Made by a program: the position numbers and the translations under genes. The notes beneath the pieces were generated by a model that was not told the DNA's origin, searched no databases, and saw nothing but the letters and a program-made list of their open reading frames with translations. A stretch of DNA of 64,000 nt, taken from NCBI GenBank assembly GCA_965206645.1, contig CBDBKE010000004.1:2048001-2112000 (forward strand). Direction: 5' to 3'. The stretch is from Terriglobia bacterium. GTDB taxonomy: Bacteria > Acidobacteriota > Terriglobia > JAJPHL01 > JAPKYU01. Below, one piece after another: positions 3,495 to 41,575 of this stretch (position 1 is the stretch's first letter; the number at the start of each line of letters is the position of its first letter).

Positions 3495-3744
3495 TTCCAC
3501 GGTTTTCTCCCAACTCTTTCCTCTCGTTGCTCTTACACGGTTTTGGGGCGTCTGCTTTCGCTCGCACGCCTACAGCCTAGCCCGCTTGATGGGCGAGTTT
3601 CCTGACGGTTTCTTGACGGTGGTTACTTCTACGGCCATGCTCTACTGGCTGCGCAGCACGTTGTTGCAGTAATGGTTTTTGATCTGCTATAGCCCGGCTC
3701 GTCGTGAGGACCGTTTTGTCGAGCCATGGAATCTACTTTCCCTA
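3495..3744 (+). repeat. Repeat A copy 1 (att/element-end-like)
   Basis: Aligns with 13888-14139 and, inverted, 41405-41575; begins TTCCACGGTTTTC. Confidence 0.9.
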
Positions 3745-3772
3745 TTATCAATCGGGGCCAGGAGAGGAAACG

Positions 3773-4291
3773 ATGCCGCGATTCAAGGAACATCAATTAC
3801 AACTAGTGGGCTTGATAGGTCGTTTTGAGACTGATTCATCATCGACTCACGTCCGTAACGCGCTCGCGGCGATAGGGCGCTTGAAGGATGCCGGAGCCAA
3901 AGTTTGGAATGAGGATCCCCAGAAACTACGCCGATGGCAAGAATATTGCGCCACTTTGTGGACGTTTCTCAACAGCAGTTTGCGACAACGCCGGCATCTT
4001 AAGAAGCAAGATTTGGCTACGATCAATCGTCACGACGTGCCGTCCAGTCTGCACCGTTGCGTGGCGACGACGAATGTGATCGAGAGTCCGCAATCGGGGG
4101 TGCGGAAAAAGACGGGCAATGTTTGCCGCTGGCGCGACGGGGAGATGATCTTGCGCTGGGCAGCGGGAGCGTTCCTGCTGACTGAAAAGAAGTTTCGTAG
4201 AACCATGGGCTATCAGGACCTGTGTGCCTTGGCCGGCATTCTCGGCCGAACGAGTATCGCTACTGCCGCTGAGAAGGAGAAAGGGACGTAA
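3773..4291 (+). pseudogene. Chimeric ORF: unknown N-terminus fused to an IS256-family transposase C-terminus
   Basis: TTNVIESPQSGVRKKTGNVCRWRDGEMILRWAAGAFLLTEKKFRR is typical of IS256 C-termini. Confidence 0.75.
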
Positions 4292-4564
4292 CATGAACCT
4301 GCAAAGTAGTTTAAGACACCCTCACCTCAAGATTCCGCGGGCAATGATGCGGATGCAGACCCGCTGGCTTAGAAGATTCTACGACGAGGGCGAAGAGCAC
4401 TTCGACTTCGGGTTCAATAAACTGAAGGCCGAGACAGACCACCTTACGCCCGAGGAATGGGAGAAGGACGAGGATTTTTACCTCGAACAGCGCTACGACT
4501 TGAAGTCTTTGCGGGAGCTGAAAAGGCACTTCTCAATTGTTGGACTGTTCACGGTGTTCGAGAT

Positions 4565-5793
4565 TGCCAGCTCAACCGGTCGATGCAACACAAGCGTTAA
4601 ATCGTTCTGCCGGAGTTTCAAACTCCAGCGTCTGACGGGGCCGTTCGTTCAGCTGACGTGCCACCTTGTTCAGATGCGCCTGAGAGTGCACCGACAAGTC
4701 CGTTCCCTTGGGGAAGTACTGTCGAAGTAGACCGTTGGTGTTCTCATTCGAACCGCGCTGCCATGGACTCTGAGGATCACAGAAGTATACGTCAATGTCG
4801 GTCGCCAACGTGAACCGTCGATGCTCGGCGAGCTCCAGGCCTCGATCCCAAGTCAGAGATTTGTACAGTTCCGTCGGCAGCTTCTTCGCGTGCTTGATGA
4901 GCGCCGACACGACCGTCTCCGTTTTCTTGCTGGATACTTTCGTAAGCATCACGTAGCGCGTATGACGTTCGACCAGAGTCGCAATGTGGCTGTTCTTCGA
5001 TCCGGACAGCAGATCGCCTTCCCAATGACCGGGCACGGCACGATCTTCGACCGAGGCCGGGCGCTCACGGATCGATACGATGTCGGTGATCTGTCCTCGT
5101 CCATGGCCTCTCAGACTTGCATGTCGGGATCGACGAATCGTCCGCTTTGACCGCAGATGCTGCATCAGCTCTGCCTTCAGCGCACCGCGGGCTTGAACAA
5201 ACAGGCTGCGGTAGATGGTCTCGTGAGACACGTGATAGGACGGATCCTTCGGATAGGCTCGTTTCAGCCAGCTGGCGATCTGCTCAGGCGACCAGTTTAT
5301 GCTGAGCTTTCTGGCCACTACCCGTCGTAGTTGTGGATGCTTGACCAGCTGACACCGCTTCGGCCGGCGGGCCCTCTCCCCGGCTTGCTCATCGGCCTCC
5401 GCTGCTCGATAGTCATTATCGCCGCCATTCCGCCGAATCTCCCGGCTCACCGTCGATGGTGAGCGACCCAGCAACCCGGCGATGGATCGTATCGATTGAT
5501 GTGCCGCAATGCCTCGAGAGATCTCTTCGCGCTCCGACAACGTCAGTGCCCAACATGAACGGCGTGGTGGCCGAGGACGGATGCCTCCGTACGGAGCAAG
5601 CTGATGGTAAACAGACGATGGCTGCTTACAAAACACTCGTCCAATCGACTTGAGCGACTCCCCTCGTTTCCACCGATCCCACACCTCCTCCAGTTCCGCC
5701 AGCGTGTAACCGCGACGAGCTCTTTGCTTCATCCGCATACACTCCACCTCCTCCTTTCAAGGCAAAGTGTTGCGTCGATGGGTTGAGACCACC
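4565..5793 (-). mobile_element. IS30-family element copy 1 (1229 bp, AT target duplication)
   Basis: Near-identical to 29074-30302; imperfect terminal inverted repeats; AT on both flanks. Confidence 0.95.
4572..5747 (-). CDS. IS30 transposase
   Basis: GHWEGD, LTWDRG, PWQRGSNENTNGLLRQYFPKG. Confidence 0.97.
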   Translation of the reverse strand: MECMRMKQRARRGYTLAELEEVWDRWKRGESLKSIGRVFCKQPSSVYHQLAPYGGIRPRPPRRSCWALTLSEREEISRGIAAHQSIRSIAGLLGRSPSTVSREIRRNGGDNDYRAAEADEQAGERARRPKRCQLVKHPQLRRVVARKLSINWSPEQIASWLKRAYPKDPSYHVSHETIYRSLFVQARGALKAELMQHLRSKRTIRRSRHASLRGHGRGQITDIVSIRERPASVEDRAVPGHWEGDLLSGSKNSHIATLVERHTRYVMLTKVSSKKTETVVSALIKHAKKLPTELYKSLTWDRGLELAEHRRFTLATDIDVYFCDPQSPWQRGSNENTNGLLRQYFPKGTDLSVHSQAHLNKVARQLNERPRQTLEFETPAERFNACVASTG

Positions 5794-6594
5794 ATGTTTA
5801 TCCGGAATACGCTGCAGGAGCTTTACTTGGCGGGTGCGGATGTGCCAAAGCTGAATAAGCGCTGGTGTCTCGACAAGATGAAGGAGATATTCAAGGCAGC
5901 AGGCGTGCCCATAACGGAACCCGATCGTGACTGGAATTCCATCAAGAAATTACAGGCCATCCGAAACTGCATAACCCACCTCGACGGCCGACCTGACGAG
6001 GAAACCGTGCGGCAGCTTAAAGGCTATAACTGTCACGTAATCAAGGGCGTGTGGATGAAACTTCCTGCTAGCTATTTTGAGGAGAGCGCCGACTTGGTCG
6101 AACGAATCTGCGAGTGCATCGTCGAGGACTGCCAGAACGCCGTGAAGGAAAAGCGTGTCAAGGCGCGTGCCCGCAAGGCCCGAGGCGAGAAGACGACATC
6201 ATCCGCACGTTCCTCTTAGCGTATGAGGACACATACTGGAGCAGCATCGAGCCGACGTTTCGCCTTTTCTTGGACCCCGTGTTGAAGACCCCCCTGTCCC
6301 ATAGTCCGAGCTTCAAGGTGAAGTGGCCCGTATGCGAGCGGAAGAAGTTTCCCGGCGGCGCGCCTTATCTGTCATCACTGTCCGCTTGAGGGGTGTTATT
6401 GGTGCGCCGCGCCCGCACGGTCTCTCCGAGGTCGTCGTTCCGGCGCCGCCAGACTGACCTCCACGGAGCCGCACTGAAACCACTAAGGACACCAGGCGAC
6501 GCCCCGTAGCGTTGGATTTTGCCCCGTTGCTATCGTAACCCCGAATGGGTCCGGCTTTTCGAGGGTACCGACCAGATTCGTGTTGAAATACACG

Positions 6595-6720
6595 CTAACG
6601 GCTCGGCCTGAGCCCTCGGGCGCGCATGAAGCTGTAGAGGGTGGTACGGGACACGCCCGTGATCTTGGCGATGGCGGTCTTGGAAACGCCCAGCTCGAGG
6701 AAACGTCGGATTTCGTCGTT
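6595..6720 (-). pseudogene. Serine resolvase C-terminal HTH remnant
   Basis: Minus strand reads RFLELGVSKTAIAKITGVSRTTLYSFMRARGL. Confidence 0.6.
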
Positions 6721-6736
6721 ACGATCACCGCTGCTT

Positions 6737-7058
6737 TCACGGCGCCTGGCGATCCGCTTCCAGAATCCGGTCGATGCGCGGCCGCACCGGCCTCAGCTTG
6801 CCCGGCCGTCGCTCCGGTTTCTTGCGCCGAGGAGGCACGGCCTGCGCAATCGCCTCCCGCACTATCCGCCGGTGTACTCCCAGCTTCCGCGCTACCCCAC
6901 GGATCGTTCCCACCCCGAACTCGTACTCCCGTCGAATCTCTTCAAATAGTTCCACCCTCGATCTCCTCGTCACCCGTCCCCTCCGTTCCAACTCCAAACT
7001 TGAAACAGACTCTCCTGGTCAGTTGTCAGGGGTGGGCCAATTGAGAGTAGCGAAATCA
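6737..7058 (-). mobile_element. IS21-family left end with istA N-terminal remnant
   Basis: [30 protein letters not shown]...[15 protein letters not shown]. Confidence 0.8.
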
Positions 7059-7062
7059 CCAC

Positions 7063-7401
7063 GTGTGCTTCGATGTAACGAACGTGGGAGAACGGCCCGT
7101 AATCATCACCACAGTAGGTTGGGTTGTCGGAAAGCGAAAGAAGCGCAGGTACTGTGTTCAGCCCCTATTGGCGTCCAGGTCGCAGCATTGCCCTGTTGAA
7201 CTCACGCACGAGAAAAATGCCAAGCTCATGGTTTCGCTGACCGAAGCGCCGAGCTGGGTAAGTGATTTCAAGAAGTTCCTCGATGACACCTCAGACCAGT
7301 CACTGAAGACGCTCAGGGCGCAGGTCTTTACATCGGTAGGACAAACCTTCGAAATCAAACCCGAAAGCGAGCTGATTGGTCGGCTTCGTTGGGGTTGCTG
7401 A
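7063..7401 (+). pseudogene. Hypothetical protein, probably 5'-truncated by the IS21 end
   Basis: Protein-like ORF starting immediately after the IS end. Confidence 0.45.
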
Positions 7402-7439
7402 AACGGTGCCTTGAGCCGTTTTGATTTTTCTGGTCGGTT

Positions 7440-7600
7440 TTGCATAGTAGTCGTCGCTCCTACTACTTGTTCTTTAACTACATGTCTTCTATTTGTATGG
7501 TCTTCCCGAAACAGCGAAGAATCGGCCCGGCGAGTCTTCCTGAAACGGCGTGGAAAACTCCCTCGATTCACCGGCCCTTGTGGAAAAATATCGTCACAGG
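7440..7600. other. Candidate plasmid oriV (AT-rich tract plus iteron-like repeats)
   Basis: TCTTCCCGAAACAGCG (7501) and TCTTCCTGAAACGGCG (7536), GTGGAAAA twice, next to the repA 3' end. Confidence 0.4.
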
Positions 7601-8017
7601 AAGTCCCAGGAGCGATTTTCAGCGTCCGGAGGCCCTGCAACCTTCGGGCAAACGCAAGAAGCCGTCAGAGGCGAGCTTTGCGGTTCTAGCTTGCTAGCTG
7701 AGGATGATCCGAAGGTGGAATGGTGGGCCGTGAGGGGTGAAGGATCAGGACGCCCGGCGCGGTTGTGTAGTTCAGGCCGGACCAGGCTAGCTTGATCTTC
7801 TTCAACTCCCGGATCACCTTGCGTTGGAAGTTGCGGACGGTGACTCTGTCGCTGGCCTTGTCCGGGTGTGCTCCGAACTGGCGGTACACCTGTCGCCAGG
7901 AGAGACGCTGCGGAGCGGGAAGGTGCGGTAGACCAACCAGAGGTAGAGGTCGAGGCCCAGCGAAGAGCGTTTGAGCGCCGTGAGGGTGTTCATATCGAGC
8001 GGTACAGGGTGGCGGAT

Positions 8018-9297
8018 TGACCTGCCTGGCGATTTCCGGACCAGCTGAAGCCTGAGAGAATGGCGCCCTCGGAGAAACGAGGGAGCCATGAAGAAGACCC
8101 GGTTTACCGAAGAGCAGATGGTGACGATCCTCCGCGAGGCCGATCAGCGGCCCGTTCCGGAGGTGGCCAAAAAGAACGGCGTCAGCGCCCAGACGCTCTA
8201 CGCCTGGCGGAAACACTTCGGCACGTTGGAGCCCGCCGATGTGAAGCGGCTGCGGCAGCTCGAGCAGGAGAACGGCCGGCTGAAAAAGATGGTGGCCGAT
8301 CGAGATCTGGAGATCGACGTGCTCAAGGAGATCACCCGAAAAAAATGGTAGGCGCACGCGTGCGCCGGCCGCAGGTCGCGTATGCACGTGCACGCGGTCT
8401 GTCGGGTCGCCGCGCGTGCGCCTTGCTCTCCGTCGCACGGTCCACGCTGGGCTACCAGTCGCGGCTGGTCGACCGGGATGCCCCGGCGCTGGCCGCGATG
8501 CGTCGTCTGGCGGCGCAGTATCCGTGGTACGGCTATCGCCGGATTCGGATTTTCCTAAAACGCGAAGGGCACACGATGAGCACGGACCGGACCCATCGCC
8601 TCTGGCGCCAGGCGGGGTTGCAGGTGCCTCGGCGGCGGCCGCGGCGCCGGGTCGCCCTGAGCCGGCCCCGCCCGGTGCCCGCCACTGCGGTCAATCACGT
8701 CTGGGCGTACGACTTCGTGTTCGACACCTGCGCGAATGGGCAGACGCTCAAGTGCCTCACCGTCGTCGACGAATGGACCCGCGAGTCACTCGCGATCGAC
8801 GTGGCCGGCGGCATTCGGTTCGGGCGCGTTATCGAGGTGCTCACGCAGCTCGTGAGCCTCCACGGAGCCCCACGTTACCTCCGGTCCGACAACGGCCCCG
8901 AGTTTGTCGCGGGTGCGATTCTCCGGTGGCTGCTCCAGGCGCAGATCGAAACCGCGCTCATCGAGCCGGGGAAGCCGTGGCAGAATGCGACCGACGAATC
9001 GTTCAACGGGAAGTTCCGCGACGAGTATCTGAGCCTGCAGTGGTTTCGGAACCGCGTGGACGCGAAGGTGGGGATCGAGCAATGGCGACGGCACTACAAC
9101 GACGTGCGACCGCACTTGAGCCTTGGCTATCTGACGCCAGCCGAGTTCAAAGCGCAGCTCCGTGCTGGCTCGGATGACGGTGGGCGCTCGCCGGCGATGC
9201 CGGCTCACGCTGACCAAGAAGAACACGAGAGCGACTTAACCATGCCGACTGGCGCTGTTCTCCAGTAATCGGTGGTCCGAAGAAAGCCGGCAGGTCA
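8018..9297 (+). mobile_element. IS3-family element copy 1 (GGAT target duplication)
   Basis: TGACCTGCC...GGCAGGTCA ends; orfA 8088-8351, orfB to 9268; A7 frameshift window near 8339. Confidence 0.96.
8088..9268 (+). CDS. IS3 transposase OrfAB (-1 programmed frameshift)
   Basis: MKKTRFTEEQ HTH; WAYDF, RSDNGPEF, ESFNGKFRDE DDE motifs. Confidence 0.93.
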
Positions 9298-9936
9298 GGA
9301 TGATCTCGTTGAAGAACGCCTCAGCTAAATAAATCTTGCTGTCCCACAGCATCGGCTCGTCAGGCTTACGCTCGTTCCACCAAAAATCAGTAAGGTCGGC
9401 AATCAGAGCGGTGGCGGTCGTTTCGCGCCGCGCATCCCCATAGACCAGCGAGACGCTGCAACCAAACAGCCGCTTCATCTGGTTGCGGAGGCGGGTGTAC
9501 TTTCCGCCGCTGGTGCTGTAAACACCGAGCGCTCGCATGAAGTCCGCCAGCGATTTCCCCAGAACCAGCTCGCGGTTTTGGGTTCGTACCGCTTCGGTGC
9601 AGAGCCAGGCCAGGATCAAACGCGGCAGGTTGCCGAAGGGGAGCTTGTTGCCGCCCGTCACCGTCATGTAGAGGGTGAATGGCCCGTTGACGCGTTTGTA
9701 TTGAAGCCGGTTGCCGGGGTTGCTCCGGGGCAACGAGCAGAGCGCCATCGTTCGCGCCATAAAACCCCAGTCGGGGTCCGCTTCGCTGGCCCCGACCAAC
9801 TGGTTTACCTGATCGGCGAGGGTGAAGCCCCGCCGCGCCGGTGGTGGGGTTTCGCGGAGCGCCTTGACCGGCCCGTCCAGATCGGCGATGACTTCACCGA
9901 CGGGAACCAACTCGCCGCGTTGACGCTGCATGCCCT

Positions 9937-9966
9937 ATTCTCCCATGCCCCTCAGACAAGACAGGG
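9937..9966 (-). promoter_or_regulatory. Repeat B copy 1, promoter-like, directly upstream of repA
   Basis: Minus strand ...CATGGGAGAATAGGGC-ATG; TGn plus GAGAAT resembles an extended -10. Confidence 0.55.
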
Positions 9967-10003
9967 ACACCACTCATCACAACCAGAGAAAGCGACAGAG
10001 AAA

Positions 10004-10744
10004 TCAAAACCGGAATCGGATGCCTGACTCAATCTGGTCGGCATCGATCGGCCCACCTCGGCTGGAGCGAAAGCGATAGCCAAAGCGGAACTCCACGCGT
10101 TTGGAGACCCGAGCCGAAAGGCCCCCCATGATCTGATAGGCAAACCGGGAATCCTCGTATGCGGTGGTATTGAGGGCTTCGGTGGGGATGCCGCCTGGTC
10201 CAATGATGATGTCGCCTAGTCCAATGACGCCGGACGGGAGGGGGCCGAACTCAATGGAGACGGTAGAGGTTTTATCGTGGAAGAAAGCTCCCAGGCCGAA
10301 CCCAACATAGGGACTCACTCTCCATTTGGGATAGCGGTAGTAGACATTGCCCATGAGGGACTGGGTCTTGATTTCTCCGTCGAACCCTATGACGGGCGTG
10401 ATGATGGTGGCATCTGGTTGGGAGACTTGTCCGTCTGGCTCGGAGAAGGTGAGGGGCGGGATGTTCCGAGAGGAATTTTCAATACGATTGCCAATCCCGG
10501 CTTTCTGGTATCCCCATTCAATCTCGGTGGAGAAACCCTCTTTGAAGGCGTACCCGAAAGCCGCCGTAAAACCAGGGCCAGCTTTCAAACCGAGGCCCGC
10601 TAGGGGATTCGGGTCGTATGGAAAAACGGCTGATCCAGCAAAACCGAGGAAGAACTTGTCGTCTTCGTCAGTCTCCTGCGCACTCAGAGGGCTAGACAGG
10701 GGCAAAACGACAAGCAGGGTGAAAAAATATCGACGGAGATTCAT
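10004..10744 (-). CDS. Outer-membrane beta-barrel protein
   Basis: Signal peptide MNLRRYFFTLLVVLPLSSPLSA; SPYVGFGLG, FAYQIMGG, terminal IRFRF. Confidence 0.85.
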   Translation of the reverse strand: MNLRRYFFTLLVVLPLSSPLSAQETDEDDKFFLGFAGSAVFPYDPNPLAGLGLKAGPGFTAAFGYAFKEGFSTEIEWGYQKAGIGNRIENSSRNIPPLTFSEPDGQVSQPDATIITPVIGFDGEIKTQSLMGNVYYRYPKWRVSPYVGFGLGAFFHDKTSTVSIEFGPLPSGVIGLGDIIIGPGGIPTEALNTTAYEDSRFAYQIMGGLSARVSKRVEFRFGYRFRSSRGGPIDADQIESGIRFRF

Positions 10745-10757
10745 ACCGCGCTCGGCC

Positions 10758-10922
10758 CTAGCTGGCCGTGGCCCGCCCGCTGATAGCCTCGCGTAATCCT
10801 TCCAGCAAGCATTCCAGGTGCGCCATGCGTTCGCGCGGTTGAGCAACTTCGGCGCGAATCTCTGCGATCTCGCCGCGCAGTCCCGCGATCTCGCCAATGG
10901 GTCTCAGTCCGTCTTTACTCAT
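10758..10922 (-). CDS. Small coiled-coil protein (54 aa, not in ORF track)
   Basis: MSKDGLRPIGEIAGLRGEIAEIRAEVAQPRERMAHLECLLEGLREAISGRATAS; ATGA overlap with the upstream ORF. Confidence 0.5.
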   Translation of the reverse strand: MSKDGLRPIGEIAGLRGEIAEIRAEVAQPRERMAHLECLLEGLREAISGRATAS

Positions 10923-11494
10923 GGGTTGCACCAAGCGGCGATTGCGCTAGCGACGGCAGCCGTGGCGGCTACCACCGCAGCCGCTACGACAATCCAAGCT
11001 ATGATCTTTTCCTGCCGTCCCAGGCTAAGCCCCGCCGTTGTCGCAGTTAGCGAGGTGAGCGAGGAAAGTGAATCTTTGTTCCACCCTGCGTTGAACTCGC
11101 CGTCGGCGTTTCCGACTTGTTGCCAACTCTCGCTCTCAAGAATCAACGCTGGGAGTAGTTGACCTGTTCTGACTGGGTTGCCGTCAATTCGTCCTACTCG
11201 TTGGCATGCTTCTCCCCAGTCACCGACGGGTAGTTGAATTTCGATTTTGTGTTTGGGGGACTGGCCAACCTCATGCTCACCTTGGGCCTCTTGGGCAACC
11301 TCCTCGCAGCGCTTTCTTATGTTCTTTACAGCCTCTGGATTCTTGCGGATCTGATCAATTCCTTCGAGGATGACATCCCTAGCTGGTTTCTTGCCCCGGC
11401 CTTGCACCCAGTGGCTCCATGCGTTATCAGGCATCTCCCAACACAGGGTTGTCGTTTCTTTCGAGCTTGGCCTTCCAGCAAGCATGGCTGTCAC
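10919..11494 (-). CDS. Hypothetical protein with C-terminal TM helix
   Basis: 191-aa ORF, hydrophobic C-terminus, preceded by repeat B. Confidence 0.5.
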   Translation of the reverse strand: MTAMLAGRPSSKETTTLCWEMPDNAWSHWVQGRGKKPARDVILEGIDQIRKNPEAVKNIRKRCEEVAQEAQGEHEVGQSPKHKIEIQLPVGDWGEACQRVGRIDGNPVRTGQLLPALILESESWQQVGNADGEFNAGWNKDSLSSLTSLTATTAGLSLGRQEKIIAWIVVAAAVVAATAAVASAIAAWCNP

Positions 11495-11522
11495 CCGTCT
11501 CTTTTATGCTTCACAGCTTTTC

Positions 11523-11552
11523 ATTCTCCCATGTTCCTCAGACAAGACAGGG
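11523..11552 (-). promoter_or_regulatory. Repeat B copy 2
   Basis: ATTCTCCCATGTTCCTCAGACAAGACAGGG; 28/30 identical to copy 1. Confidence 0.55.
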
Positions 11553-11600
11553 GTGGCTACGTCACTTGGCGGGCGCGGCGGTTTTTAGCTCAGCGCCAGG

Positions 11601-11813
11601 TCATGAAGCAGCTTCGACGTACTCGGCGGTGCTCGTAGGTTCCGGAATGGGATCTCCAGTCTCTCGCATGCCCTTGAGATGTAACTGGATGCCCTCGTGG
11701 ATAAGTTCTCGGACCTCTTCTTCGGTTTCACCAGCGGCCACACACCCCGGAAGGTCCGGCACGTAAGCAGAGCAGCCCTTACCGCCCTTTTCTATGATGA
11801 TCAGATATTTCAT
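11601..11813 (-). CDS. hicB: HicB antitoxin
   Basis: AYVPDLPGCVAAGETEEE. Confidence 0.92.
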   Translation of the reverse strand: MKYLIIIEKGGKGCSAYVPDLPGCVAAGETEEEVRELIHEGIQLHLKGMRETGDPIPEPTSTAEYVEAAS

Positions 11814-11998
11814 CTCTTTAACCCTGCCTGACGCCTGACTGAGGCCACGGTCCCTTTCTTCATTTCCGCTCCGAGACGCCCGCTGATGGTTACTTTGCCT
11901 TTTTTGACAGAATGATGGTACTGCCGATGACTACCACGAGTCCCCACTAAATACCACCCGTCGTTTTCGATCATCCTGATAACATCCCGCACCTTCAC
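11810..11998 (-). CDS. hicA: HicA toxin
   Basis: GWYLVGTRGSHRQYHH. Confidence 0.92.
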   Translation of the reverse strand: MKVRDVIRMIENDGWYLVGTRGSHRQYHHSVKKGKVTISGRLGAEMKKGTVASVRRQAGLKR

Positions 11999-12147
11999 GA
12001 CGCATGCTCAAGGGCGGTGGCGATCTGGTCCACTTGGATCAAGTGGTGAAGCGCCTGGGGCGTGGCGTCGTGGATTGCCTTCACCGGCGCGTCCAGGTCG
12101 GAGAGGGCATCACCGATGGGAACCAACTCGCCGCGTTTACGCTGCAT
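11995..12147 (-). pseudogene. Second RepA N-terminal fragment
   Basis: MQRKRGELVPIGDALSDLDAPVKAI versus repA MQRQRGELVPVGEVIADLDGPVKAL. Confidence 0.75.
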
Positions 12148-12540
12148 GGCTTCTCATAGTCCTGAGCGCCGATGGCCCTATTCGTCACCACCAGGCTCTT
12201 TAGGGAGCAGAACATCAAGGGCATCATGTGCATCCTTGCCCGTCTTCCCGATGGCATGCGAGCTCACCGTCTTCGGTAAAGCCATCAATGCCAATGATCT
12301 GAACGGCCCCATAACTCTTACGAATCCGCTCCGCGAGCGCGGGGGCTTCGTAGACGACCATCACGGCGCTGTGAACTGTAAATTCTGAAAACTCAAACAA
12401 GCTTGGCTCACCTGGAGCCCCCGTCGGCGTCATGTCTTGAAGAACCGAATCTCAAGAAGTTCTTGCGCTTCTTTGTCGCCCTTCTTGGCCTCAGAGATGG
12501 TGTGTAAAATCTGCTCAAGCTCATATTCCCATCCGCCGTG

Positions 12541-12575
12541 TGTCAAGGGCGGAGTAAAACTAGACCACTCCGGCG
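12541..12575. mobile_element. Solo IS21 terminal repeat
   Basis: TGTCAAGGGCGGAGTAAAACTAGACCACTCCGGCG is the reverse complement of 56987-57021. Confidence 0.85.
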
Positions 12576-12579
12576 AGAT

Positions 12580-13431
12580 TTACTTGTCCTTCAGTAGCTC
12601 CCGGGTCTTTGGTTGCCATTCCCGCGCCAACCGCTGGGCTTCGGCGATTTGTGAAGCAGTCATCTGCTCTGCCAGTTCGTCTCTTCCTGATCGGTAGCTC
12701 TCCGCCAATTTCCCCGTAGTCGTTCGTAAAGCGGCCAAGTTAATCCACTTGTGGGCTTGGACATAGTCCTGGGGAACGCCCTCACCAAGGGCGTACATAA
12801 ACCCGAGGCGGTATTGGGCGTCGGCATCCCCCTGCTCGGCGGCCTTGCGATACCAACCCACGGCCTCTTGGTAGTCCCGGGGAACGCCCACACCGTTGTC
12901 GTACCTGAGCCCGAGGTTGTATTGGGCGTCGGCTTGCCCCTGCTCGGCGGCCAGGCGGTACCACTTCACGGCCTCCTGATAGTCCTGGGGAACGCCATCG
13001 CCGTTGTCGTACATGTCCCCGAGGTTGAATTGGGCGTCGGCTTGCCCCTGCTCGGCCGCCAGCCGGAACCACCTCACGGCCTCCTGGTAGTCCTGGGGTA
13101 CGCCATCGCCGTTAGCGTACATGACCCCGAGGTTGAATTGGGACATGGCGTCTCCCTGCTCGGCGGCCAGGCGGTGCCACTTCACGGCCTCATGGTAGTC
13201 CTGAGGAACACCCTCGCCGTTGTCGTACTGGACCCCGAGGCTGAATTGGGCGTCGGCTTGCCCCTGCTCGGCGGCCAGGCAGTACCATTTCGCGGCCTCC
13301 TGGTAGTCCTGGGGAACACCCTCGCCGTTGTAGTACCTGCGCCCGAGGAGGAATTGGGCGTCGGCGTCTCCCTGCTCCGCATTCAAACACAGTTGTTCGA
13401 CTTCTGTGGTATGTTTCATCTGGGTCTCCAT
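12580..13431 (-). CDS. Sel1-like repeat protein
   Basis: Tandem 36-aa (108-bp) units AEQGxADAQFNLGxMYxNGxGVPQDYQEAVKWY. Confidence 0.95.
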   Translation of the reverse strand: METQMKHTTEVEQLCLNAEQGDADAQFLLGRRYYNGEGVPQDYQEAAKWYCLAAEQGQADAQFSLGVQYDNGEGVPQDYHEAVKWHRLAAEQGDAMSQFNLGVMYANGDGVPQDYQEAVRWFRLAAEQGQADAQFNLGDMYDNGDGVPQDYQEAVKWYRLAAEQGQADAQYNLGLRYDNGVGVPRDYQEAVGWYRKAAEQGDADAQYRLGFMYALGEGVPQDYVQAHKWINLAALRTTTGKLAESYRSGRDELAEQMTASQIAEAQRLAREWQPKTRELLKDK

Positions 13432-13885: not shown

Positions 13886-13887
13886 TC

Positions 13888-15890: not shown

Positions 15891-15908
15891 TTCAGGAGGA
15901 AACACATC

Positions 15909-32439: not shown

Positions 32440-34380
32440 TCAGGACATCTCCGTCCACTCAACCGGTACAAGCGCTACGTCCCCGCGCCATTCTTCGACG
32501 ACGGAGGCATTGAACCAATCATCGTCAAGATGGGCGTGATCCAGGACGATAAGTTGAAAGCCGTCGCCGATGGCTTGGCTCTCTGAGTGCATGAATTCAA
32601 AAAGATTGTGCACAGCCCGCCGATCCGCGTCCTGGAGCGCGTCAATGCGACCACTCTGATCGGCTTCGGGCGGATAATGTGCCTGAGACGGTTGATCGAA
32701 CACGAGAATTCCGGGGACTGGACGGTTCTGCTCTCTGAACCAACGATGCAGAGCCAAGAGAGTTACCACGTGATACCCGACCCAATTTTCTCCGCTACCG
32801 ATCCGGTTGAGGGGGATCGGGCCCGTAACCGTTTCAGCTACGACTGAGAGCTTCTTGAGATCGAGCCGTATGCGTCCTTCGGCGTGTTCCAGGTCAAGGC
32901 CGGACGCATAGCTCGTCATATGATCGGCGATCAGGTTGAGAAAGGTATAGACTCTTTCCCCCACATCGTCGGCGCTCACGTGCTCAGCGAGCACTTCAAC
33001 CCGTCTCCGGGCTTCCTCGATGAGCGTGTCGAGATCATCCCTTTCGTCCGACAGGTTGGTTTGATCCAGGAATGCGCTGATTCGTCCGACAACGCGTGCC
33101 CGTTCAATGACCTGATCGCGTTGCAGGCGTGCCTTTTCGTCATTCGCATAAGCGTGTTCGAGATCGCGCTGCGTCGAAACAATCGCCTTCTCGATATCGC
33201 TGCGTTTCTTGCCGAACGCATCCAGGCGCTCCTGAAGGTGCGGACGTTCGGCCCCAACCGCCTCCAACTGTTTTTCAAGCACCCGAAGAGAACTGGAAAG
33301 GTCTGACACCGCCGGCGTCGGCGTCTTGAGATGTGCTTCGCAAAGTGGGCAGATGTTGTCTGCATTCGATGTCCCCGTATAGAGGTCGAGCGAAACGAGA
33401 CGCGCACGCTGTTCACTCACTTCCGTGGAATAGCTGGTCTGCTCTCGTATAAAGTGTGTCGTAGCGCGTATTCCGTTCTGAACGTCGTCCAATTGCCGAT
33501 GAAGGGTGCTGATCTCGTTCTCAAGCCGAGCGATCACCTCGCTAGAGCCGGAAACGATGGACGGCGAGTGAAGATCCATCGATATAACGCGTTCCAACTC
33601 CTGGAGCGCCAGCTCAACTTCGGTGGGTTCAAAGTCTTCGTTGACGAGGCCGGCACGGCGCGCGTCGAGAACGAAACGACGAATTCGCGCGTGGGCTCTA
33701 TTGTCGTCGCTCTTCATGGCTTCTCGACGCGCTTCCAGTTGGCGCAGTGACAGTTTTGCGTCATCCAGTTCGTTTTGGCGAAGAAAATGCTCTTCATCAA
33801 CAGCGCCGAGGAAGTAGGGGATCGTGTCCTTGATAGCCTGCGGAATGAATTGTTCGCCCTGGCGATGAAACAGTCGGTCCCGGCTAGCGATCTCATCCTG
33901 CTTCTGGAAGCATAGAAAAAGAGCGTGTCGGATCGTCGCCTGCAACGGCCCTCGGGTCCCTGTGAGCGGCCGATTCTCATTCTCGGCGATCCCAGTGAAT
34001 CGAGTCAGCAACCGGATCAGCGCCTCTTCGGTCGTATTCTTGTGCAAGTTGGTATATTCTGGCGGACCATCGTGCCGGCCGCGACGAACATGGATATCTG
34101 GTCTGGTGCGCTTGCCGAGATCCGGATTGCGCCGCCCTATGAACAGAACATCGTCCTTGTTCTCAATCTCCACACCAAACCAAGACACATGCTGTCGGAT
34201 GACGCCTTCGGCGACATAGCACTCGGAACGGCCGAAGCAATAGTCGAGAATATCTATGATGGAGGATTTGCCGGTCTTCGCTCGGCCAGTGAGAATATTG
34301 AGACCGGATCTTCGAAATGTAACTGTCCGGCACTCACCACGGATACTGTAGACGCTAACGGAGCGAAGTGTGAAGCTCAT
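32440..34380 (-). CDS. lmuB: Lamassu/ABC-3C SMC-like ATPase (DUF3732-type)
   Basis: Walker A GRAKTGKS, coiled coil, IGSGENW signature, VFDQPSQ, LDH. Confidence 0.88.
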   Translation of the reverse strand: MSFTLRSVSVYSIRGECRTVTFRRSGLNILTGRAKTGKSSIIDILDYCFGRSECYVAEGVIRQHVSWFGVEIENKDDVLFIGRRNPDLGKRTRPDIHVRRGRHDGPPEYTNLHKNTTEEALIRLLTRFTGIAENENRPLTGTRGPLQATIRHALFLCFQKQDEIASRDRLFHRQGEQFIPQAIKDTIPYFLGAVDEEHFLRQNELDDAKLSLRQLEARREAMKSDDNRAHARIRRFVLDARRAGLVNEDFEPTEVELALQELERVISMDLHSPSIVSGSSEVIARLENEISTLHRQLDDVQNGIRATTHFIREQTSYSTEVSEQRARLVSLDLYTGTSNADNICPLCEAHLKTPTPAVSDLSSSLRVLEKQLEAVGAERPHLQERLDAFGKKRSDIEKAIVSTQRDLEHAYANDEKARLQRDQVIERARVVGRISAFLDQTNLSDERDDLDTLIEEARRRVEVLAEHVSADDVGERVYTFLNLIADHMTSYASGLDLEHAEGRIRLDLKKLSVVAETVTGPIPLNRIGSGENWVGYHVVTLLALHRWFREQNRPVPGILVFDQPSQAHYPPEADQSGRIDALQDADRRAVHNLFEFMHSESQAIGDGFQLIVLDHAHLDDDWFNASVVEEWRGDVALVPVEWTEMS

Positions 34381-34886
34381 ACGCGTATTCCCCATGCCGC
34401 TAGGATAGTTGGCGTGTCTCCAGCCGCGGCGAACCAGCGGGCAATTGTTCGAATGGCATCGACGGTCTCGCGAATATCCGTCGTAGTGTCGTCAAGCGCC
34501 GATTGTGTGAATGAAGCCCGCGTAGACCCGGTGGTAACCACGCCGCCATCACCAAAGCGAATCGCGTGACGCACCGACGCGTAGCGAAGTGCTTCACGAA
34601 CATAGGGGCTTAGATTACGGGCACGGTCAGCAAACCCCACCCGGACATCGTGGTTCTCTTCGAGCCACGGCAATAGTCCTGTTACGGTGGATCTCGGTAG
34701 GCGGTTGCGGGTCGCAGGATGAAGAGCGATAGGAAGAGCGCAAAACACCAATGCGAATGATGCCGGCGCTTTCCTAGCCTTCTCATAGGCACGGACGAAT
34801 TCATAAATGAGCACACCGCAATAGGCCGGGTTGAAGTGGTTAGCCTCTTCGGGTACCCAGCGGTCGCGCCAAGGATTCAGACTCAT
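34377..34886 (-). CDS. lmuC: Lamassu/ABC-3C middle component
   Basis: EANHFNPAYCG, LPIALHPATRNRLP; ATGA overlaps on both sides. Confidence 0.85.
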   Translation of the reverse strand: MSLNPWRDRWVPEEANHFNPAYCGVLIYEFVRAYEKARKAPASFALVFCALPIALHPATRNRLPRSTVTGLLPWLEENHDVRVGFADRARNLSPYVREALRYASVRHAIRFGDGGVVTTGSTRASFTQSALDDTTTDIRETVDAIRTIARWFAAAGDTPTILAAWGIRV

Positions 34887-36085
34887 GATTCATCTTTCGG
34901 GGAATCAAGCAGGGTTTCATAATCGGGATGCCAACCGATTCTCACTTCATCGGCAAGCATCTGAAACGATCCTGAGGACAACCAGATTTCGTCCCGGTTG
35001 CGCAACGGCTTTTGATACTCGCGCGCCCAACGGAACACCCTTCTGCCTTGTGCTTCTCTTGTGGCATCATCACAACCCCCGGTGACATCAGCCGTACAGG
35101 CAAGGAAGCGGCGTTGCCACGCATCACGAAGGCCCCGGTCGTAGCGATCGGTTTCGCTGTCCAGCAACAAGTTTTCCCGTGCCCATCGAGAACGTTGCTC
35201 ATATGCACGATAGTAGTCGTGCACCGTTGCCCTTACTTCGTCTTCGGACACGTGGACGAAGTTCATTTGACGGATGAACGTTCTGTTATCCCTGGGCAGG
35301 TCTCTAACGGCCGGCATCGCCTCAATCGTCTCATCGAGAGGAAGATTGCCGAGTCGGAAGCTTTCCCGGAGCTCCGAGACTTTATTTTGAATAGAGGCTA
35401 GAGGTATTGCCGCAGAATTCGGGTCCCTCATGGCGATGACAACCCGGTTGAACCACCACCCTTCCAGATGGTCAGTCAAGTTGCCTACTTGGTTGGGCGC
35501 AGCCGAGTAATGAAGCACTGTTTCAATCTCGTCGCGCACATCGATTATGTTCGGTGCCTTGTCGAACACCCAGGTATTGCCAACCAGAACCTGTCTTGCG
35601 GCATCTGTGAGTCCCAGGAACGCATCGCGGGCCGCCGCAGTTGCCTGATTCCGCGAGTCGTTCGCTGCCGAAAGGAGTAACTCCACAGCGCGAGGCTCGT
35701 CACGACCATCACCGGCTTGGCGCAACATCGACAACGCTGAGCCGGCGGCGGCGGCACTGGTGGTCAGGAAAACAAGACGCGTTCTGGGCGCACCTGCGGG
35801 ATCTTCGATAATCCGCTTGATCCAGATGTTGAGCGTCTTCCAAAGATCGACGCTGCCGTCCGATACATCGCCGCGCTTTCCGTGATGTTTGGTCTGCATG
35901 AGTTCAACGGGGTGCCCAGCATCCTCGAAAGCCACATCATCAAACTTCTCGATGGAGAGCGCATAACCGGGATGGCGCCTGCCTTCTTCCAAGCCGCGTA
36001 GCAGGGCGTAGCGCGCCTGAAAGAGGTAGCCGGTCAGAGAAGCGGAGGCGTCATGCGATGCGCTCAAGGGGGGCGACGTCTTCAT
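34883..36085 (-). CDS. lmuA: Lamassu/ABC-3C effector with Cap4-like nuclease N-terminus
   Basis: GYLFQ, EKFDDV, QTKHH; C-terminal GSFQMLADEVRIGWHP. Confidence 0.85.
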   Translation of the reverse strand: MKTSPPLSASHDASASLTGYLFQARYALLRGLEEGRRHPGYALSIEKFDDVAFEDAGHPVELMQTKHHGKRGDVSDGSVDLWKTLNIWIKRIIEDPAGAPRTRLVFLTTSAAAAGSALSMLRQAGDGRDEPRAVELLLSAANDSRNQATAAARDAFLGLTDAARQVLVGNTWVFDKAPNIIDVRDEIETVLHYSAAPNQVGNLTDHLEGWWFNRVVIAMRDPNSAAIPLASIQNKVSELRESFRLGNLPLDETIEAMPAVRDLPRDNRTFIRQMNFVHVSEDEVRATVHDYYRAYEQRSRWARENLLLDSETDRYDRGLRDAWQRRFLACTADVTGGCDDATREAQGRRVFRWAREYQKPLRNRDEIWLSSGSFQMLADEVRIGWHPDYETLLDSPKDES

Positions 36086-38473: not shown

Positions 38474-40825
38474 TTAATGTTCATGCTTCCTGCGTTGAAG
38501 TTCGGCGGCGATCCAGTCCGACATCTGACTCCGATGTAGGCCGCAAAAGACATTACGAACAGGAAGACTGCGGTCGAATTTCCGCCGGATCTCCGCATTC
38601 TTTATGCCCTGGTCGTCGGCCACAATCGTTTCCCATTCGACCTTCACGTGGAACTCTTCATCCTCATCGAAAACCGTATGGCCATGGATAACGCTACCGT
38701 CAACGATACGCCCACATGCCAGGATGCCCTTTACGTTGACATAGGCGAATACTCTCTGTCCTGCGATACTTCCTTCCAGATTTACCGGACCGTTGGGATA
38801 GCCATAAATGGCAATTACACCCTGATCAAACATCTTGGAGTATGCGCCCGGCGCGTAGGTTTCATTCGTATTGAAGAACCAATCGCCATGCCAATCGCCA
38901 TCGGCACTTTCTCTTGCTGTCTGAAGCTTTGGCAGTTGCTCTATTTCCAACAGAAATTCCCCAGCATCGTTGTCTCCATCGGTGTAAATCGCGAAGGGTA
39001 TGAAGCTGATCGGCACACCATACCCCCTTAGCCATTCTATAATCCGAGCCAGACCCTCGTCGGAGGCCGGTGCCACGATACAAATTCGATGACCTCTCGG
39101 ACGTTTCGGAATGTCTTTTGTTTCAACTGTTGGTGACCTGCCTGGCGATTTCCGGACCAGCTGAAGCCTGAGAGAATGGCGCCCTCGGAGAAACGAGGGA
39201 GCCATGAAGAAGACCCGGTTTACCGAAGAGCAGATGGTGACGATCCTCCGCGAGGCCGATCAGCGGCCCGTTCCGGAGGTGGCCAAAAAGAACGGCGTCA
39301 GCGCCCAGACGCTCTACGCCTGGCGGAAACACTTCGGCACGTTGGAGCCCGCCGATGTGAAGCGGCTGCGGCAGCTCGAGCAGGAGAACGGCCGGCTGAA
39401 AAAGATGGTGGCCGATCGAGATCTGGAGATCGACGTGCTCAAGGAGATCACCCGAAAAAAATGGTAGGCGCACGCGTGCGCCGGCCGCAGGTCGCGTATG
39501 CACGTGCACGCGGTCTGTCGGGTCGCCGCGCGTGCGCCTTGCTCTCCGTCGCACGGTCCACGCTGGGCTACCAGTCGCGGCTGGTCGACCGGGATGCCCC
39601 GGCGCTGGCCGCGATGCGTCGTCTGGCGGCGCAGTATCCGCGGTACGGCTATCGCCGGATTCGGATTTTCCTAAAACGCGAAGGGCACACGATGAGCGCG
39701 GACCGGACCCATCGCCTCTGGCGCCAGGCGGGGTTGCAGGTGCCTCGGCGGCGGCCGCGGCGCCGGGTCGCCCTGAGCCGGCCCCGCCCGGTGCCCGCCA
39801 CTGCGGTCAATCACGTCTGGGCGTACGACTTCGTGTTCGACACCTGCGCGAATGGGCAGACGCTCAAGTGCCTCACCGTCGTCGACGAATGGACCCGCGA
39901 GTCACTCGCGATCGACGTGGCCGGCGGCATTCGGTCCGGGCGCGTTATCGAGGTGCTCACGCAGCTCGTGAGCGTCCACGGAGCCCCACGTTACCTCCGG
40001 TCCGACAACGGCCCCGAGTTTGTTGCGGGTGCGATTCTCCGGTGGCTGCTCCAGGCGCAGATCGAAACCGCGCTCATCAAGCCGGGGAAGCCGTGGCAGA
40101 ATGCGACCGACGAATCGTTCAACGGGAAGTTCCGCGACGAGTATCTGAGCCTGCAGTGGTTTCGGAACCGCGTGGACGCGAAGGTGGGGATCGAGCAATG
40201 GCGACGGCACTACAACGACGTGCGACCGCACTCGAGCCTTGGCTATCTGACGCCAGCCGAGTTCAAAGCGCAGCTCCGTGCTGGCTCGGATGACGGTGGG
40301 CGCTCGCCGGCGATGCCGGCTCACGCTGACCAAGAAGAACACGAGAGCGACTTAACCATGCCGACTGGCGCTGTTCTCCAGTAATCGGTGGTCCGAAGAA
40401 AGCCGGCAGGTCATTGGGTCGTCGGTTAAATCTCGAAACCGATCAAGCAACGGGACGTATTGCTCTTCACTGTGGTTACGTGTCCAGTATTGTCGATACA
40501 GCTCTTCCAAATCCTCATACGCACTCTGGGTCTTGTCAGCTGCATATTCAAGTAACTGCCCGACTGTTGCCCTATCGGACCAGTCTCGTTTTATCTCGAC
40601 AATAACCAAACTCCCTTCAGCGTCCAGAGCCAATATATCAGCCATGCTGAGACCACTGACGGATTGAGCGATCACCAATACCTCCTCGCCTCCAAACAAC
40701 AACTTCGGGTGCCGGGACATCCAGTCCTCCAAGTCCTTCTCTGCGAAGCCCAACTCTGATGCTGAACTTTCCACAAATGCCTGAAATTCGATTTCGTCTC
40801 GCTCACGGATGCGTCGAAATAGCAT
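38474..40825 (-). pseudogene. NucS-like endonuclease plus EVE/PUA-like domain, interrupted by IS3
   Basis: EKDLEDW, DILALD..LVIVEIKR; C-terminal part WFFNTN...VFAYVNVKGILACG; TTGG duplication. Confidence 0.78.
39134..40413 (+). mobile_element. IS3-family element copy 2 (TTGG target duplication)
   Basis: Near-identical to 8018-9297. Confidence 0.96.
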
Positions 40826-41040
40826 CCGTGCCTCCTTCAGCAACGTTTACAACATTAGTCAAGGATGCTAGGGACAGAGACTCGTCGACCGCTTCACTTA
40901 ATTGCGTGCCGCGGTCCGTCAAAATCGTCGCCGACCGCACTCATCTCCATCACTTCGCGTTTCGGGATATACCGATTTGGCAGTCGCGCCTGCCTGTAGG
41001 TCTTATAATGGGAACGGAAGTAAGGCCGGCGGCAGCGGTA

Positions 41041-41143
41041 GATCAGGCCCACTCGCGTATCTTCGAGCTTCAGCAGGCAGAAGAGCCTCAGGCAGAATCC
41101 TAGTGCAACGCGCATCAGAGAGCGGCGGGGCAATCCCCGCCGC
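41041..41143 (+). repeat. Duplicate of the 3' end and downstream hairpin of 15909-16157
   Basis: DQAHSRIFELQQAEEPQAES* followed by GCGGCGGGG..CCCCGCCGC. Confidence 0.88.
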
Positions 41144-41160
41144 GATCCGATCCTTTCGAC

Positions 41161-41291
41161 GGTACTGTCAAGTTGAGCAGAATCCGCCCGTTTTGCGGAA
41201 GGATTCTGCTGGATCAGAGACTGAGAATCAATGACTTAGCGGTGGCGGCGGGCGGCGAGAATGCCGCCAAACTGCTTAACTTGACAGTACC
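41161..41291 (-). mobile_element. 131-bp MITE copy 3 (inverted)
   Basis: Reverse complement of copies 1 and 2. Confidence 0.9.
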
Positions 41292-41404
41292 CGGGATTCC
41301 AACCGAGACGGAGTGGATCGAAGGAGGAACGGGGAGCGAACTGCGGGAGCAGGTGGGGACCATCAAGCGCTGCTATCGCAACGATTGGATCACGCTCGAC
41401 AACA

Positions 41405-41575
41405 AGCTGCGCGGCCAGTAGAGCATGGCGATGGCAGCAACTACCGTCAAGAAACCGTCAGAAAACTCGCCCATCAAGCGGGCTAGGCGTAGGCGTTGCG
41501 AGCGAAAGCAGACGCCCCAAAACCGTGTAAGAGCAACGAAAGGAAGGAAATAGGAGAAAACCGTGGAAGACGCCA
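41405..41575 (-). repeat. Repeat A copy 3 (inverted)
   Basis: Reverse complement begins TGGCGTCTTCCACGGTTTTC. Confidence 0.9.

Follow-up and report, generated by a model that had tools for sequence, protein, structure and literature searches.

The stretch analyzed here (the window) comprises 64,000 nucleotides (nt) from a Terriglobia bacterium of the Acidobacteriota (assembly GCA_965206645.1, contig CBDBKE010000004.1, positions 2,048,001 to 2,112,000), and our subject is repeat A, a dispersed sequence present in it three times. At the left end of the window, a tRNA-Val(TAC) gene lies between the genes of two tyrosine recombinases, integrase 1 and integrase 2, and a tandem motif found just past the integrase-1 gene recurs inside each copy of repeat A. 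The features on which the argument turns are the following.

1-660, + strand: integrase-1 gene, 3′ part (219 aa), tyrosine recombinase (Pfam Phage_integrase, E = 2.5e-18)
668-689, + strand: tandem arm-type motif of the integrase-proximal arm (exact pattern at 672-689), 8 nt past the integrase stop codon
746-822, − strand: tRNA-Val(TAC), primary attachment site (Rfam tRNA, 76 bits; ARAGORN)
924-2066, − strand: integrase 2, the second tyrosine recombinase (Pfam Phage_integrase)
3482-3744, + strand: repeat A copy 1, with core half-site at ∼3482-3494, box GGGGCGTCTGCTTTCGCTC at ∼3544-3562, and tandem motif at 3603-3620
13875-14139, + strand: repeat A copy 2, with tandem motif at 13997-14014
41399-41581, − strand: repeat A copy 3 (inverted), with tandem motif at 41443-41460 and core half-site at ∼41569-41581

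Repeat A copies in the window and the position of their edge

The original prediction, made from the letters of the window alone, had described three copies of repeat A carrying a motif nearly equal to the sequence at 668-689. That description held: the three copies aligned where it had placed them, a repeat finder recovered all of them independently, and the tandem motif pattern TGACRGTTTCTTKACRGT matched the window exactly four times (672-689, 3603-3620, 13997-14014, and, on the reverse strand, 41443-41460) and was found in 0 of 100 dinucleotide shuffles. The stretch shared by all three copies spans ∼170 to 185 nt, extending to ∼250 nt between copies 1 and 2, and in copy 2 the conserved end block runs on through a higA/higB gene pair to ∼16209. 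An Rfam scan of the whole window returned the tRNA as its sole match, with no family on repeat A.

The fixed cut point that had been proposed for these copies is real, although it had been misplaced. Comparison with intact copies of the interrupted genes put the true junction 8 to 13 nt to the left of TTCCACGG, inside (G/T)CAGG-CTGGCGTC, at window positions ∼3487/3488, ∼13877/13878, and 41578/41579. The repeat thus starts as (G/T)CAGG-CTGGCGTC, and its targets briefly resemble the sequence around that start; 3 to 8 nt at the junctions fit both partners (GAGCAG^, CTCCAG^, GAAGCAGG^, AAGCGGGC^, CAGGCA^, and GAAGCA^, where the caret marks the junction). The junction had also been likened to a tRNA 3′ end, which was mistaken; the 5 nt beside it mimic one strand of a tRNA anticodon stem instead.

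Distribution, complete elements, and attachment-site arms

We compared the source genome (G000; 4.4 Mb) with other genomes, among them the relatives G001, G003, and G033; contigs are designated C1 to C4. BLAST with the 170-nt core of the repeat found 15 copies in the source genome, all of which start at the same base. Rightward of this edge the copies are alike for 110 to 250 nt and then pass into at least three unrelated continuations. In total, 54 matches were found in 5 of the 41 genomes searched; the 4 genomes other than the source (of 40) carry repeat A at 81 to 92% identity, two of them belonging to the same genus and two to another family of the class. We examined 41 copies, namely, the 15 of the source genome and 26 fetched loci (of the 54 matches), and later 5 more. 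The edge is in register at TTCCACGG in all 46 copies inspected, with 8 to 13 conserved nt upstream.

Left flanks that were >70% alike were merged before counting, and the 41 copies yielded 34 distinct flanks. These favor T at position −23 (24/34), G at −22 (23/34), C at −21 (20/34), T at −20 (23/34), A at −15 (22/34), and A at −14 (23/34) over background base frequencies of 0.19 to 0.31 (binomial p, 1e-10 to 6e-4, or 1e-10 to 9e-6 for the five positions other than −21; because the genomes are related, these values overstate independence). Together with the repeat's own GCAGG, the flank consensus reads CTGC-N7-GCAGG, the shape of a tRNA anticodon stem-loop. In addition, tRNA 3′ halves cut in the anticodon loop flank 4 of the 41 copies (tRNA-Val(TAC) twice, tRNA-Arg(TCT), and tRNA-Pro(GGG)), and a fifth such half, from tRNA-Pro(GGG) in G003, was among the 5 later copies. 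The remaining flanks are mutually unrelated sequences that include pieces of multicopy insertion sequence (IS) elements and of conjugative-element genes. One IS3-family orfA site, CACCTGCTTCTCCAG, was used in both orientations, and the single copy in G001 has the same junction as the canonical copy in G003 (tRNA-Val 3′ half). Some junctions were duplicated together with their flanks (C1_311234/C3_149077, C2_6388/C4_12688, and C4_1068379/window copy 2), and the junction designated IS-A occurs also in G003, twice.

We also observed two unusual arrangements of the arm. At C4:12441-12702 of the source genome, a copy of repeat A has an internal 48-nt duplication that doubles the tandem motif and gives four arm repeats. 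At locus L046 (G003:C2:91350-92050), repeat A stands head to head with the far-end arm of an integrase-2-type element, the two being joined via a TTGTAAG core; this hybrid site of two distal arms presumably came from recombination between the junctions of two elements in the same tRNA-Val.

Three complete elements with both junctions were found, two in G003 and one in the source genome, and in all three a tyrosine recombinase gene (Pfam PF00589) lies opposite repeat A. The 78-kb element on contig C2 of G003 has the order orphan tRNA-Val 3′ half, repeat A, body, integrase 1, motif arm, and intact tRNA-Val(TAC). Its intact tRNA gene and integrase-1 arm occupy C2:1407302-1408123, its orphan 3′ half is joined to repeat A at C2:1485470-1485734 in the same orientation, and a 45-nt direct repeat is common to both ends. 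Open reading frames (ORFs) of 330 and 709 aa lie beside its integrase, as in the source genome. The 66-kb element of G003 sits in a chromosomal gene, with its integrase end (...CTCTGC^CCAAGAA-GTATC) at C2:2829264 and its repeat A end (CATGA-CCAAGAA^GCAGG) at C2:2895498; both ends are similarly oriented, and the 7-bp sequence CCAAGAA is duplicated at them. The corresponding empty site is preserved in the source genome, where the outer flanks of this element are contiguous at C4:298793-299251, inside an ordinary ORF, and overlap by the 7 nt CCAAGAA (298910-298916). At this one site, compared between G003 and G000, the occupied and empty sequences differ exactly by the element.

The third element, of 36 kb on C1 of the source genome, is bounded on one side by repeat A; its opposite end holds a tRNA-Val 3′ half followed by genes for an integrase (390 aa), a VirB11-type ATPase, and a coupling protein. 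Its insertion split one IS copy, with the left IS part joined to repeat A at 311244 and the tRNA-Val half joined to the right IS part at 275271, and TTGTCGAGCAG is present at both junctions. The core in tRNA-Val consists of inverted half-sites around the overlap (CCTGC-TTGTAAG-GCAGG), and the overlaps of element and target differ (TTGTCGA versus TTGTAAG and CCAAGAA versus the tRNA loop). In the C1 and 66-kb elements, both junctions hold the target's overlap and not the tRNA loop, which indicates that overlap heterology is tolerated.

The integrase-1 gene is truncated by the window's left edge, and a full-length 390-aa paralogue is encoded on C1, the gene being 97.8% identical over a 450-nt stretch. 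In the window's tRNA-Val(TAC), the 7-bp overlap corresponds to the anticodon loop (784-790), and the two sides of the stem (779-783 and 791-795) form the inverted core sites; the homology of integrase-end copies in relatives stops at window positions 783-787, and the motif at 668-689 lies ∼100 nt from this core. A proximal arm with the same tandem motif adjoins all four integrase-1-type genes (at tRNA-Val, tRNA-Ala, tRNA-Pro, and on C1), and the 21 matches to the motif genome-wide comprise the repeat A copies, these 4 proximal arms, and 2 others. At the level of sequence, this supports the earlier proposals that the repeat belongs with integrase 1 and that the tandem motif behaves like an arm-type site. 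In a structure model of the C1 paralogue, the N-terminal three strands and helix have predicted local distance difference test (pLDDT) scores of 69 to 89, and the best matches in the PDB are full-length lambda integrase, with 376 aligned columns versus 286 for the 75-356 fragment; that fragment is without the arm-binding domain, and the full-length protein aligns over ∼90 more columns. In our reading, the integrase would bind the tandem motif through its N-terminal domain.

Two different elements converge on the tRNA-Val(TAC) gene at 746-822, that of integrase 1 from the left and that of integrase 2 from the right. The integrase-1 element type supplies the tRNA 3′ half; the integrase-2 element supplies the 5′ half and has a tandem motif of its own, GTTTTGTCACGG, which occurs twice at ∼898-950. 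Another six tRNA-Val 5′ halves (bases 1-40/42; 100% identical) are dispersed through the genome, of which three have the same upstream flank as the integrase-2 side in the window. We compared repeat A with the arms at the far ends of other islands, which stand next to orphan tRNA-Val(CAC) and tRNA-Asp halves and to orphan tRNA-Val(TAC) 5′ halves. These arms have the same layout, with a pyrimidine-rich stretch, the box GGGnnnCTGCTTTCGCTC (CTGCTTTCGCTC-type), and a tandem repeat ∼110 nt from the core. The tandem repeat is lineage specific, being GGTTTTGATACGG in the tRNA-Val(CAC) and tRNA-Asp arms and GTTTTGTCACGG in one arm beside a tRNA-Val(TAC) 5′ half. Thus, GTTTTGTCACGG recurs in the distal arm after that 5′ half and beside integrase 2 in the window, and a motif that stands both beside its integrase and in the distal arm is what arm-type sites predict.

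Every island lineage compared has the box GGGnnnCTGCTTTCGCTC in its far-end arm, at ∼65 to 85 nt from the core, although the tandem motifs differ between lineages. It occupies ∼3544-3562, 13938-13956, and 41500-41520 in the window and also occurs in G000 at C4:433305+, C3:285439−, C4:1975021+, and C3:689648−. An accessory factor common to these lineages, perhaps an excisionase or a DNA-bending protein of the host, may act at this box.

The integrase-1-type member at tRNA-Ala encodes VirB3, a VirB4-like ATPase, TrbL/VirB6, VirB8, CagX/VirB9, TrbI/VirB10, and ArdC. ORFs of the sizes of VirB11 and the coupling protein occur in conserved order in the tRNA-Ala member and in G003, and VirB11 and the coupling protein were assigned on the C1 member (Pfam and NCBIfam). 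The 709-aa coupling protein has TraG-D_C and TrwB domains. Most type IV secretion genes are absent from the C1 member and from the window remnants. The presence of type IV secretion and coupling-protein genes in the element identifies the family as integrative and conjugative elements (ICEs), which encode an integrase-1-type recombinase, a VirB11-type ATPase, a type IV coupling protein, and a P-type type IV secretion system.

We conclude, with a probability of roughly 85%, that repeat A is the integrase-distal attachment-site arm of this ICE family. In the sequences compared, the fixed edge, the complete elements, the empty versus occupied site, the duplication of the overlap, and the target consensus carry this conclusion, and the edge itself is a core half-site that mimics the tRNA anticodon stem. 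The complete elements, the 34 flanks, and the empty site also bear out the original prediction that these are recombination ends of a tyrosine-recombinase element with relaxed target choice that often hits other mobile elements.

Our best reading of the mechanism is conservative site-specific recombination by the integrase-1-type enzyme between the attachment site of a circular form (attP) and an anticodon stem-loop or its look-alikes. The attP would consist, in order, of the integrase gene, the tandem motif, ∼55 nt, the element-borne tRNA 3′ half, the 7-bp overlap, the (G/T)CAGG core half-site, ∼100 nt of repeat A, and the second tandem motif. At the primary site, tRNA-Val(TAC), the integrase exchanges strands at both edges of the 7-bp overlap, with tRNA-Pro(GGG) and tRNA-Arg(TCT) as variants. 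As the sequences show, integration rebuilds the tRNA beside the integrase, and at the far end repeat A follows a displaced tRNA 3′ half. The sequences also show the same reaction at pseudo-sites like CTGC-N7-GCAGG, located in IS elements, the ICEs' own genes, and chromosomal genes, which accounts for each copy cutting its neighbor at the identical point of the repeat. The bodies of the elements in the window would later have been eroded by IS activity or rearranged, the genome being very rich in IS elements.

Interrupted genes, cargo, and other features of the window

The following features adjoin or lie close to the three copies.

2762-3487, − strand: VirB11/TrbB-type ATPase gene of the integrase-2 element (Pfam T2SSE, E = 3e-44; ORF 2762-3481)
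3704-4291, + strand: IS256-family transposase gene fragment (NCBIfam IS256, E = 1.3e-6, below the cut-off)
13776-13877, + strand: piece of an integrase-1-type gene, ∼100 nt (92% identity to intact genes up to the junction)
14554-14880 and 14918-15199, − strand: HigA-like antitoxin and HigB-like toxin (Pfam HTH_3 and HigB-like_toxin)
41158-41292, no strand: miniature inverted-repeat element, 135 nt (repeat finder), interrupting the gene fragment beside copy 3, outside repeat A
41296-41421, + strand: type IV coupling protein gene fragment (tblastn; residues ∼319-384 of the 709-aa protein; TAG inside the repeat)
41579-42092, − strand: IS3-family remnant (orfA at 41748-42092 intact, Pfam HTH_Tnp_1; orfB cut at CCTGAAGCA^)

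Each copy adjoins a truncated gene, as had been noted at the outset: the T2SSE ATPase gene, the integrase-1-type piece, and the IS3-family orfB remnant. The 5′ part of the ATPase gene was cut away at the pseudo-site CCAAGCGGGC, and homology to 10 other copies stops at the junction. The IS256-family fragment, which lies outside repeat A, adjoins copy 1 and none of the other copies. The integrase piece was cut at the pseudo-site ACAG[T/G]CA^GG, and the same junction is found at C4:1068379. As far as the junction, the IS3 remnant matches an intact copy (C4:374399) at 98% identity, and the other half of its orfB lies at C4:1180107, 910 kb away, inverted and joined to another IS fragment. We considered and rejected repeat A as the 3′ end of a gene with an intergenic leader; the ORF of copy 3 is the coupling-protein fragment, which occurs in 4 of 15 copies and is hence a neighbor.

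All three window copies show the same kind of half-site junction without an integrase-proximal partner. The excision of ∼10 kb or inversion of ∼28 to 38 kb suggested in the original prediction would require recombination between such like junctions. Between them lie IS elements and defense-type cargo, and no type IV secretion genes were seen there; we therefore regard all three as solo far-end junctions. The genome motif map contains no cis-mobilizable mini-element, that is, no repeat A with an integrase-proximal arm within a few kilobases. The higA/higB pair is cargo at the distal end of this island type. Three places in G003 match the window from ∼13873-13876 onward at 93 to 98% identity as far as 16209, higBA included. 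When window positions 9300-19800 were compared with G001 and G003, the block from repeat A through higBA was the only common one, and synteny over this interval therefore gives no test of the 10-kb deletion that the original prediction had envisaged.

Several features of the intervening DNA deserve mention in their own right. The 135-nt miniature element, with ∼22-nt terminal inverted repeats beginning GGTACTGTCAAGTT, occurs at 17062-17196, 25393-25527, and 41158-41292, and the genome holds 35 near-full-length copies. The defense-type cargo (17252-19726 and 32440-36085) includes a NACHT NTPase that has an NCH1 domain, as well as a DUF3732 protein and a CTD7-domain protein making up an ABC-3C-type pair. 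Two IS30-like copies of 1,233 nt (4565-5797 and 29070-30302; HTH_38 and rve) are inverted, 100% identical, and 23 kb apart; homologous recombination of this pair could flip the intervening DNA, in which repeat A copy 2 lies. Direct IS3-family copies encoding a 402-aa rve transposase (8018-9300 and 39134-40400) are 31 kb apart and identical over at least 300 nt. A Sel1-repeat protein gene (12580-13494) has six 108-nt tandem units with 61 to 85% identity to the reference unit; contigs from public sequencing runs have joints that skip 81 to 298 nt within this stretch, and the number of units may vary between strains.

Those public-run contigs, from four runs over window positions 1-15000, had no listed joint at the repeat A edge. 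The contigs listed were <1 kb, three of them start at 3658 inside the repeat, and contigs cannot show rare rearrangements. The best run shares 0.65 of the window's words, and runs labeled as sponge metagenomes share 0.19 to 0.23, values from which we draw no conclusion about habitat.

Alternative explanations and comparison with known systems

Several observations weigh against the reading of repeat A as an ICE attachment-site arm. The source genome has 2 integrase-1 ends with a tRNA-Val 3′ half, one being the window's intact tRNA-Val, versus 15 repeat A copies; most copies are therefore solo, and their origin must be reconstructed indirectly. A search for the missing halves of the genes cut in the window recovered no counterpart for the ATPase or the integrase gene, and matches to multicopy IS elements are uninformative in this respect. 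In the source genome, an integrase-1-type ICE occupies tRNA-Pro(GGG) (G000 C4:1637767-1674644), and an orphan tRNA-Pro 3′ half marks its other end 37 kb away; the arm at that end does not resemble repeat A and carries a different tandem motif, ACGTCACAA, twice. Unlike this ICE, G003 and G033 have a tRNA-Pro(GGG) half joined to repeat A, and a tandem array or arm exchange may be the cause of the mismatch. The two tandem motifs are in direct rather than mirrored orientation about the core, and the quality of the integrase model is moderate (mean pLDDT, 71.8; predicted template modeling score, 0.41; template modeling scores of matches, 0.31 to 0.35). No relaxase was present among the 10 proteins of the tRNA-Ala member or the 10 of the C1 member, and no systematic relaxase search was made. 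The public-run contigs, which are assembled contigs only, contained no excision product or circle. Finally, the IS fragment joined to the distant orfB half resembles IS3 at the join (12/15 nt) and also the right half of the tRNA-Val site (10/15 nt). The 910-kb case is ambiguous because of the resemblance to IS3, and we treat it as a lead and not as evidence.

Integration with subsequent decay, exchange at the junction at a later time, or both would have produced the solo copies; whole-element decay, duplication of junction-bearing segments, and exchange of a junction with a new pseudo-site are all possible origins. It is also conceivable, although we think it unlikely, that the repeat A junction stays recombinationally active after the body has decayed, with integrase supplied in trans by resident ICEs swapping the junction with pseudo-sites. 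If so, solo arms would “hop” and produce large inversions and deletions, such as the 910-kb split of the IS3 orfB, and would serve as landing pads for incoming elements. A tRNA-targeting integrase would then be a major and previously uncounted scrambler of genomes in IS-rich Acidobacteriota.

The solo copies and their varied flanks could instead derive mostly from later events at a few old junctions, through segmental duplication, IS-mediated deletion, RecA-dependent recombination between the 85 to 92% identical arms, or integrase-mediated junction exchange, and not from independent integrations of whole elements. The duplication of several junctions with their flanks and the IS-A junction common to G003 would fit such a history, as would the excess of arms over integrase-1 ends (15 versus 2) and the IS3 orfB halves, which lie as a single inversion at the junction would leave them. 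We nevertheless consider this improbable: a target consensus across 34 distinct flanks is explained by site-specific choice only, three complete elements with both junctions demonstrate whole-element integration, and the IS3 case is compromised by the similarity of the partner IS at the join. Moreover, this explanation would alter the history of the repeat and not its identity.

Other readings would change that identity. The many copies in an IS-rich genome, their sharp edge, and the IS256-family fragment to the right of copy 1 might suggest the end of a DDE-type IS or a miniature nonautonomous transposon that inserts into mobile genes. However, the repeat has no second matching end or terminal inverted repeat, its right side diverges into at least three unrelated continuations, and no transposase is consistently adjacent; canonical copies stand between an orphan tRNA half and an integrase-bearing element, and the flank duplication is the 7-bp overlap, which is also present in the element's core, and not a transposase-type target duplication. 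We therefore regard the DDE reading as largely refuted and give it very little credence. We give slightly less still to repeat A as a promoter or leader with a start codon (GGGAGAAAACC-GTG-GAA-GAC-GCC on the reverse strand) that forms shufflon or phase-variation fusions. Nearly all copies do have a Shine-Dalgarno-like sequence 6 to 7 nt from a GTG just inside the edge, but the flanking fragments have no fixed orientation and do not keep the frame (the ATPase is not in frame with copy 1, and the neighbors of copies 2 and 3 run antisense to them), tRNA halves are among the flanks, and no Rfam family matches. With regard to an integron attI site, NCBIfam XerA/integron-integrase-like scores were subthreshold for both integrases, and no cassette array turned up, although no search was aimed at one.

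The attachment-site arm reading places repeat A among several well-studied systems. Lambda Int is a heterobivalent tyrosine integrase that binds arm-type and core-type sites. The predicted structure of the repeat A integrase has its best match in full-length lambda Int, including the small N-terminal domain, and the inferred attP resembles that of lambda in that each arm carries tandem repeats at ∼100 nt from the core and the core has inverted half-sites around a 7-bp overlap. Unlike in lambda, the core lies in a tRNA anticodon stem-loop, the integrases share 18 to 19% identity, and the arm sites differ in number and orientation.

The closest parallel for the use of secondary sites is ICEBs1 of Bacillus subtilis. 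Its primary site is described as 17 bp in a tRNA gene, with 5-bp inverted repeats around a 7-bp spacer; with this site deleted, no fewer than 15 secondary sites were used, bearing as many as 12 mismatches, and one of them was used in both orientations (Menard and Grossman 2013, PMC3715440). The repeat A family appears alike in its 5+7+5 tRNA site, in secondary sites within ordinary genes that keep part of the pattern, and in the use of one site both ways, here the IS3-family orfA site. Those ICEBs1 insertions were made in the laboratory after deletion of attB (PMC3715440), whereas those of the repeat A family are natural, numerous, and in many cases located in mobile elements. The repeat A host also differs in belonging to the Acidobacteriota, which are of Gram-negative type, and its secretion system is VirB-like. 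To our knowledge, no long arm with tandem arm-type repeats of the repeat A sequence has been reported for ICEBs1.

In the Islander survey (Hudson et al. 2015), an anticodon-centered crossover is the commonest class (2,083 of 3,919 islands), and 3,760 islands have a 3′ fragment (PMC4383910). As in those islands, the tRNA gene is restored, the displaced fragment marks the far end, and tandem arrays occur; the window's integrase-2 element would belong to the rarer 5′-fragment class (159 of 3,919). Unlike in Islander islands, most repeat A copies are not beside any tRNA fragment, for which reason automatic annotation would miss them. CTnDOT with its IntDOT integrase and Tn916-type elements are likewise reported to tolerate overlap heterology (PMC2817482), and here the 7-bp overlaps of target and element appear to differ. 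Those elements are without a tRNA primary site, whereas the repeat A family has a clear one.

The original prediction had proposed an undescribed system. We find instead the ordinary distal attachment-site arm of a tRNA-targeting ICE, and 5+7+5 secondary-site use is already documented for ICEBs1 (PMC3715440). Our literature search, supplements aside, returned no paper on the repeat A element family in Acidobacteriota; an account may exist elsewhere. Particular to this family are the number of natural secondary insertions, many in other mobile elements, and the high conservation of the 170-nt arm across two families of the class. A dispersed repeat is thereby explained as an ordinary part of an ICE, and the exact ends of an island family are marked. 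The 34 distinct flanks from five genomes and the one empty-versus-occupied pair constitute a natural set of secondary sites for an anticodon-targeting integrase, of a kind otherwise mapped mainly in laboratory crosses, such as those with ICEBs1. This set defines the integrase's target needs and indicates that overlap heterology is tolerated in nature, and the integrase-2 lineage with its own tandem motif, together with the other distal arms with different ones, offers a ready test system. Set beside lambda, ICEBs1, the Islander islands, and CTnDOT, the repeat A family is a known kind of system with unusually many natural examples, and it reveals no new kind.

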